NCBI GenBank assembly: GCA_951406725.2
Contig: OX597819.1
Location: 133,982,001-134,046,000, forward strand
Length of the DNA: 64,000 bases
Reading direction: 5' to 3'
Origin: Octopus vulgaris
Lineage: Eukaryota
This document shows positions 27,668-28,330 of the stretch, in pieces. The notes under the pieces were generated by a model. The model ran no database searches. It worked only from the letters and a program-made list of their open reading frames with translations, and was not told where the DNA came from. A program made the translations under genes and the position numbers. Numbering within the stretch: position 1 is the first letter of the stretch; each line of letters starts with the position of its first letter.

Positions 27668-28330
27668 ATGAAAATAGTAATGCAATACGAGAGTATTGCC
27701 GTCCAGTAAAGGATAGCCCGTGAGGGTAAAATTATACATATAAAAGTAAATAAATGGCACAACGAAGCACCGATATTTACTGGAAAATAGCGAACGTAAT
27801 AAATACGACGCTAATGTATAGCTTCACTGCGTATATACTAGTAAAGATGCGTGTGTGCAACAAACATGAAAAAAATTGTCTTACCTCTTGGAAGAACATC
27901 TGAAAAATGAAAAACCTAGAAACGGATAATGCAGGACCGGTTTCAGACTCTTCAAAATACGTTTGCCAACGTATATTTGATTTGTCTTCATCAGCTGCAT
28001 ATACCTTGACAACATTTCAAATGTTGCCACATCTATGCCAGTACACTCGTCTGAACGCCAAAACGTTAACAGAACGAGAACAGTGAAGAAGTTTCAATGA
28101 AAATAGTAATGCAATACGAGAGTATTGCTTTCCAGTAAAGGATAGCCCGTGAGGGTAAAATTATACATATAAAAGTAAGAGGTAAGACAATTTTTTTCAT
28201 GTTTGTTGCACACACGCATCTTTACAAGTACATACGCAGTGAAGCTATACATTAGCGTCGTATTTATTACGTTCGCTATTTTCCAGTAAATATCGGTGCT
28301 TTTCGTTGTGCCATTTATTTACTTTTATAT
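27668..28330 (-). mobile_element. Non-autonomous HHR-bearing (retrozyme/mini-PLE-like) element, 429-bp unit
   Basis: 27668-27749 is repeated at 28097-28178 (offset 429). 28177-28330 is the reverse complement of 27738-27889. (TA)n on both sides, no ORF. Confidence 0.85.
27929..28000 (-). ncRNA. Type I hammerhead ribozyme (canonical core, GUC cleavage triplet)
   Basis: Reverse complement: ATGCAG-CTGATGA-AGAC[..ATACGTT GGCA AACGTAT..]GTCT-GAAA-CCGG-TC-CTGCAT. 6-bp stem I, extended stem II, palindromic ACCGGT stem III. Confidence 0.9.

Follow-up and report, generated by a model that had tools for sequence, protein, structure and literature searches.

Non-LTR retrozymes of metazoans are described as non-coding elements with a GC content below 50%, a type I hammerhead ribozyme, a head-to-tail arrangement and an RNA predicted to be highly self-paired, and they co-occur with autonomous Penelope-like elements (PLEs) (PMC7229834). 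The units given by Cervera and de la Pena 2020 are 350-390 nt in mussel, 330-350 nt in axolotl and 220-245 nt in coral (PMC7229834). A 2026 preprint presents non-LTR retrozymes as non-autonomous derivatives of PLEs, and itself states that evidence on their life cycle is limited; no mollusc is among the four invertebrates that its sample names by class (10.64898/2026.07.22.740005). Mobilisation of retrozymes by PLEs has been argued mainly from co-occurrence and sequence relatedness. Junctions of dispersed copies could be informative. How one kind of junction arises is described for L1: in twin priming, the second target end anneals within the RNA, and both the outer end and the inversion junction show microhomology (PMC2912911).

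The results presented here concern one insert in a 64-kb window, the whole stretch of DNA that was analysed, which is microsatellite-rich animal DNA. The insert probably arose when a non-LTR retrozyme, a hammerhead repeat of 429 nt without coding sequence, was reverse-transcribed once, by target priming, into a (TA)n tract. The endonuclease and reverse transcriptase (RT) were likely those of a PLE acting in trans, and the RNA copied was likely longer than one unit. There is good reason, short of certainty, to regard it as a member, probably of a new family, of the metazoan non-LTR retrozymes, a known kind of element rather than a new system. The coordinates are collected in Table 1.

Table 1. 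Features of the insert and its surroundings, in positions of the window
Feature	Position	Strand	Remarks
Full unit	27668..28096	minus (sense)	429 nt, non-coding, strongly self-paired, GC 37%
3' end of second unit	28097..28178	-	last 82 nt; 2 substitutions; seamless head-to-tail junction
Inverted piece	28177..28330	+	unit positions 222 to 71; AA microhomology at inner junction, ATATA with target at outer end
(TA)12 target tract	27645..27669	.	at insert 3' end; 2-nt AT overlap with unit start
(TA)29 tract	28326..28383	.	common to insert and neighbouring element
7-bp hairpin	27682..27699	-	predicted pair probability 1.0; 14 nt before insert 3' end
Type I hammerhead	27929..28000	-	helix I 6 bp, helix II 4 bp with long extension, palindromic helix III
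Predicted long rod	27822..28088	-	sense 9-275, ribozyme at tip; fold prediction
Neighbouring Hydra-clade PLE, intact-looking	28383..33797	-	lies outside the insert; one 4713-nt unit and a further 405 nt, inverted end of the fold-back type, three hammerheads
ORF of neighbour	33036-30172	-	954 aa, RT and C-terminal GIY-YIG

The insert shares with described metazoan retrozymes the absence of coding sequence, the low GC content, the type I hammerhead, a head-to-tail arrangement at its one unit-unit junction, the strong predicted self-pairing and the company of an autonomous PLE; it differs from them in a unit of 429 nt, against 170-400 nt for invertebrates, and in having 1.2 direct units with one ribozyme, an extended helix II in place of a short loop 2 and a twin-priming-type inversion (PMC7229834). 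With the PLE-derived retrozymes of the preprint it has in common a partial tandem with an inverted end, the (TA)n target and the hammerhead, and its unit lies within the 51-972 bp reported there. In that scheme an active element has two consecutive units with complete ribozymes; the insert, with one ribozyme and, unlike the retrozymes described, no parent pLTR found, would rank among the monomer-type offspring copies (10.64898/2026.07.22.740005). Truncated PLEs with a pLTR show the same order of inverted piece, partial unit, full unit and 3' end, a microsatellite target and no discernible target-site duplication; in contrast to these, the unit of the insert is 429 nt without an ORF and its inverted junction is non-palindromic (PMC8557442; PMC3846280).

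The preliminary description had recognised one full 429-nt unit, 82 nt of a second and an inverted piece covering unit positions 71-222, and blastn and alignment recovered the same coordinates. The direct repeats (27668-27749 and 28097-28178) are 82 nt long at a spacing of 429 and differ by two adjacent substitutions (blastn E 3e-35), and the inverted piece (28177-28330) differs from unit positions 71-222 by two substitutions and one 2-nt indel (blastn E 3e-72). Both matches are far beyond chance. The locus thus holds 1.19 direct units and one unit-unit junction, which retains no (TA)n, whereas 29 TA repeats separate the insert from the neighbouring element. Because the hammerhead of the unit lies on the minus strand, that strand is taken as sense, and the 3' end of the insert is therefore at 27668, with the inversion at the 5' end. 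Both flanks are (TA)n, so no target-site duplication is measurable, and blastn within the window found the host flanks absent from the duplication. The 7-bp hairpin near the 3' end, a second copy of which lies at 28111-28128, may serve as a recognition site for the reverse transcriptase.

The hammerhead core is intact, with CUGAUGA at 27994-27988, GAAA, and a GUC site whose C17 lies at 27935 (unit position 268). Pair probabilities of 0.65-0.99 are predicted for the core and for helices I and II. It had been called a textbook GUC-cleaving hammerhead; the GUC site and core bear this out, but by the measure of Rfam the word textbook goes too far, since the match to the Rfam model Hammerhead_HH9 scores 26.2 bits (E 0.0047), under the gathering score of 52. 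At the gathering level Rfam had no match anywhere in the 64-kb window. A motif scan of both strands of the window returned the hammerhead of the unit and three more in the neighbour, four in all.

Helix III of the unit is the palindrome A-C-C-G-G-U, and its predicted probability in the monomer fold is 0. Hammerheads with a palindromic helix III are reported to cleave poorly alone and well as dimers, and the palindrome of the unit matches such dimer-dependent hammerheads of tandem retrozymes (PMC7229834; PMC4209133). As a weak palindrome it is like that of the axolotl HHR_Amex1 (PMC7229834). Given that helix III is a short palindrome, the ribozyme of the unit likely needs a second copy for cleavage. 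When a modelled dimer was forced into a double hammerhead, the energy was -249.3 against -252.3 for the free fold, a cost of 3 kcal/mol. The insert has only one ribozyme; a second would fall at template position 697, beyond the end of the copy at 651. With a single ribozyme the locus would therefore be unable to release a 429-nt monomer circle, which other loci would have to do, and the insert is likely a dead-end copy.

No coding capacity was found in the unit, as had been claimed: in six frames of the doubled unit no stop-free stretch exceeds 79 codons. Searches with two frames, of 70 and 79 aa, and against 120 Hydra-type proteins gave no real protein relative. The 70-aa frame had no candidate at all, and three phmmer matches of the 79-aa frame were summed weak matches to unrelated repetitive sequences. 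The look-alikes QIYVGK and IRWQTYF in the translation were rejected as a coding remnant and attributed to chance, the best blastp E among 120 homologues of the neighbour being 2.2.

The sense RNA of the unit is predicted to fold strongly, with z -6.14 as a linear molecule (0 of 100 shuffles as good) and -6.9 as a circle, and 63% of the unit is predicted to be paired. With the ribozyme removed z was -6.07, for the two halves of the unit -5.0 and -5.5, and for the antisense -4.5. Two of 78 low-microsatellite background windows of 429 nt, each compared with 12 shuffles, reached z -4, both over long inverted repeats. The same level was reached in 2 of 18 region-strand control tests (-4.9 and -6.1), which fall on one arm of an unrelated inverted repeat (13725-13998), and a strong fold is therefore not specific. 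The 3' region of the neighbouring PLE gave z between -1.1 and +1.2 in all eight region-strand tests, and its terminal repeat a z of about 0. The outer helix that closes the predicted rod (mean pair probability 0.98) lies 8 nt from the unit boundary, and local hairpins run from the rod to the 3' end. A 5-bp hairpin straddles the unit junction; the unit has four such centres, and 4.9% of its positions lie that near one. A fold that fills it suggests that the 429 nt form a natural unit; the arguments from the junction hairpin and from the boundary are post hoc. The preliminary description had favoured a true non-autonomous unit over a truncated PLE end, and a retrozyme-type element is indeed the best fit to a non-coding sequence with a hammerhead and a fold filling all 429 nt.

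The inversion had been described as of the twin-priming type, and its geometry supports this. The outer end of the inverted piece, at unit position 71, adjoins the direct stop at 82, with microhomologies of ATATA at the outer and AA at the inner junction. The overlap between the two, previously put at about 11 bp, measures 12 nt (71-82); it is 7 nt if the ATATA common with (TA)n is assigned to the target and 17 nt if the match is extended, with one mismatch, to position 66. No other 10-mer of the unit is as TA-like as positions 66-75, which agree with (TA)5 at 9 of 10 bases and would explain where the second primer landed. The direct stop lies within 11-16 nt of this site, which on a 429 period has a chance of 5-8%. 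Unlike that of the neighbour, the inversion junction is neither fold-back nor palindromic. Twin-primed, 5'-inverted L1 copies resemble the insert in having the inverted outer end beside the direct stop and microhomology at both junctions; the insert differs in having no poly(A), no measurable target-site duplication and a PLE-type cargo (PMC2912911). Few inversions are reported among elements mobilised in trans by L1 (PMC2912911).

The insertion may be reconstructed in five steps. A tandem array elsewhere would be transcribed, and a PLE protein would nick both strands within (TA)n. The sequence itself then shows a first copy that starts at unit position 1, passes through the intact cleavage site at 268 and the unit junction, and stops at template position 511. 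The other (TA)n end would then prime at 66-75 in the second lap and be extended to 651, a mechanism proposed from geometry that is itself visible at the locus. Finally, the two cDNAs would be joined at the 2-nt microhomology. Purified protein of the PLE Poseidon is reported to nick and extend both strands of AT-rich DNA in vitro, to begin copying at an internal position of the RNA, close to a stem-loop and without target homology, and to use uncleaved RNA (PMC11167929). By analogy, this behaviour is in line with the overlap of 2 nt seen at the insert's 3' end, the hairpin 14 nt away and the read-through of the cleavage site (PMC11167929).

The template had been estimated at about 650 nt and taken to be a circular or tandem RNA. 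It comes to 651 nt if one template molecule is assumed, whereas twin priming alone requires only 222 nt. The insertion is longer than one unit, as claimed, but neither a circle nor a single molecule is thereby established, for the laps differ at five changes in 222 nt. These are four substitutions (two of them adjacent) and one indel, where the neighbour has a single indel in 696 nt (Fisher p 0.004-0.014, with one boundary mismatch dropped on each side), and they would fit two template molecules as well as greater age. All five are differences between the full unit and the partial or inverted piece. In an allele test of 16 combinations neither copy carried all the better-folding alleles, a result compatible with both decay and template heterogeneity. 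As template, an uncleaved linear tandem transcript is mildly favoured over a monomer circle, because on a circle first-lap cDNA would already cover the second priming site, assuming no RNase H, and because laps copied from a circle should start out identical; a linear tandem has neither difficulty. PLE enzymes are not known to have RNase H activity. It is rather doubtful, though it deserves a place, that the insert is a rolling-circle footprint, in which two priming events by a PLE enzyme on a 429-nt retrozyme circle were followed by read-through of the ligated ribozyme site and by more than one lap. If true, this would be direct evidence for the circular-template step that is proposed in models of retrozymes and PLEs but has been unshown, and the insert would represent the first described cephalopod retrozyme family. 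The absence of TA repeats at the unit junction makes two wholly independent insertions less likely.

The main rival reading, conceivable but improbable, gives the 429 period a different origin, namely that two 5'-truncated 3' ends of an autonomous PLE were joined by a template jump, the second copy being twin-primed and the period accidental. The enzyme would copy 429 nt of one RNA and then jump to the start site of a second RNA. A partial tandem with an inverted 5' piece is described as the normal form of PLE insertions (PMC8557442), and the neighbour shows the same. That the five differences all set the full unit apart from the other pieces is what two templates would produce, and twin priming would become simple, 222 nt of template in the first lap of a linear RNA being enough. 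The 3' region of the neighbour is non-coding over 1.8 kb, so that 429 nt without coding sequence are compatible with a PLE end. However, a template jump leaves unaccounted for a fold that fills the unit, closes 8 nt from its boundary and has a hairpin spanning the junction, and the single autonomous PLE end that could be compared is unstructured. The insertion of a retrozyme repeat is preferred. Much less probable is that an older solo insert, lying between two TA tracts, was duplicated and inverted at the DNA level by replication template switching. TA tracts are unstable, as are hairpins, and the junctions do have short microhomologies, but two precise switches would be needed, restarting at the first base of the insert and leaving at most 2 nt of TA at the junction; moreover, the geometry agrees with twin priming and the host flanks are unduplicated. 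PLE structures with inversions and tandem copies are a known source of assembly difficulties (PMC8557442), but an assembly or amplification chimera is barely credible here, since the pieces differ at five changes and so are not reads of one sequence, and since repeats of the neighbour 5 kb apart are identical at 405 of 405 nt, indicating a low local error.

The insert shares its (TA)29 tract with a PLE that had been called a Naiad; the shared tract is confirmed, but not the identity. Naiads are described as having an N-terminal GIY-YIG endonuclease, a DKA motif and no canonical hammerhead, and the Hydra clade as defined by RWK, DKT, a CxCx5C linker, a C-terminal GIY-YIG, a hammerhead and a (TA)n target (PMC8557442). 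The protein of the neighbour has RWK at 37, DKT at 124, CKCRIKSKC as the CxCx5C linker at 815 and VIY/YLG at 834/849. With a C-terminal endonuclease, no DKA and three hammerheads it was rejected as a Naiad and is assigned to the Hydra clade on motifs and domain order. Pfam recognised no family in the protein; its best named relatives belong to Argonauta hians (41-43% identity, more than 90% of the query covered) and Octopus sinensis (69% identity, 39% covered), which makes an octopod host likely. The element appears very young and intact. Its direct repeats are identical over all 405 nt and its 294-nt inverted arm has one indel and one boundary mismatch; the direct repeat ends at position 405 and the inverted piece begins at 409, a fold-back of the palindromic kind described in Adineta Penelopes (PMC3846280). 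The 4713-nt unit is longer than the <3 kb typical of the Hydra clade (PMC8557442). A stretch between RT and endonuclease (residues 501-820) is 28% N and recalls the N-rich inserts of Adineta Penelopes (PMC3846280), and the 1.8-kb 3' region contains repeats spaced by 147 nt and a purine tract.

The ties between neighbour and unit are confined to the shared tract and the orientation. Derivation of the unit from the terminal repeat of the neighbour was rejected, there being no similarity (63-91 of 100 shuffles score as well); the unequal divergence of the two and the 29 TA repeats that separate them speak against a single compound insertion. The ribozyme of the neighbour has a longer, semi-palindromic helix III and a GUA site, common in the published Hydra table, in which the ACCGGUC form appears only in Chlamys elements (PMC8557442). 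It seems likely that the neighbour is younger than the insert and arrived later in the same tract, because its repeats are less diverged, it has no sequence in common with the unit and its ribozyme form is different. It represents a candidate class of helper only.

The unit is known from one locus only: no other copy was found in the 64-kb window, in plasmids, in phages or, by ribozyme pattern, in prokaryotic genomes. A search of prokaryotic genomes for a Hydra-type locus, as a control on structure, gave 76 pattern matches, none of which was confirmed. The CUGAUGA-helix II motif of the unit had no match in the consensus sequences of PMC8557442, where line breaks could mask one, and the single match to the helix III motif there was an unrelated Chlamys sequence. 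Among the titles and opening lines covered, with most subscription work outside, there was no cephalopod retrozyme and no twin priming in a PLE or retrozyme. As a dispersed copy with PLE-type target choice, more than unit length and a two-primer inversion, the insert provides useful junction evidence. One locus does not settle the question of template or helper, but such junctions, counted genome-wide, could show whether templates are circular or tandem, and whether a PLE acts in trans or a satellite grows locally.

The window contains several other elements. At 35231-35848 there is a (TA)n-flanked, near-perfect fold-back with arms of about 230 nt at 99% identity, a 3-nt loop and a longer direct arm; the motif scan found no hammerhead in it, and it is likely a truncated PLE-type end of another family. 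An insert at 24706-25203, between (TA)n(AG)n and (TA)n, contains an older inverted repeat (24835-25152, 91% identity, 54-nt spacer) and is possibly another PLE-type remnant. The fragment at 61862-62190, cut at (TA)n, encodes a C-terminal GIY-YIG (Pfam E 4e-4) with a CCHH-like pattern and is a truncated canonical PLE of a clade other than that of the neighbour. A decayed stretch at 36750-37375 has no Pfam match; we take its translation to resemble the N-terminus of a PLE reverse transcriptase (KGG...MD motif). The inverted repeat of 480 nt at 13725-14204, one arm of which gave the control z of -4.9 and -6.1, is MITE-like and without (TA)n flanks. A broken non-LTR retrotransposon, presumably Tx1/L1-like, lies on the minus strand at 45624-48527 (RVT_1 domain, E 1e-30), with a related fragment at 8406-8645. 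Finally, a SINE-like repeat of about 330 nt is present in two copies of 82% identity, at 1443-1763 and 49067-49405.
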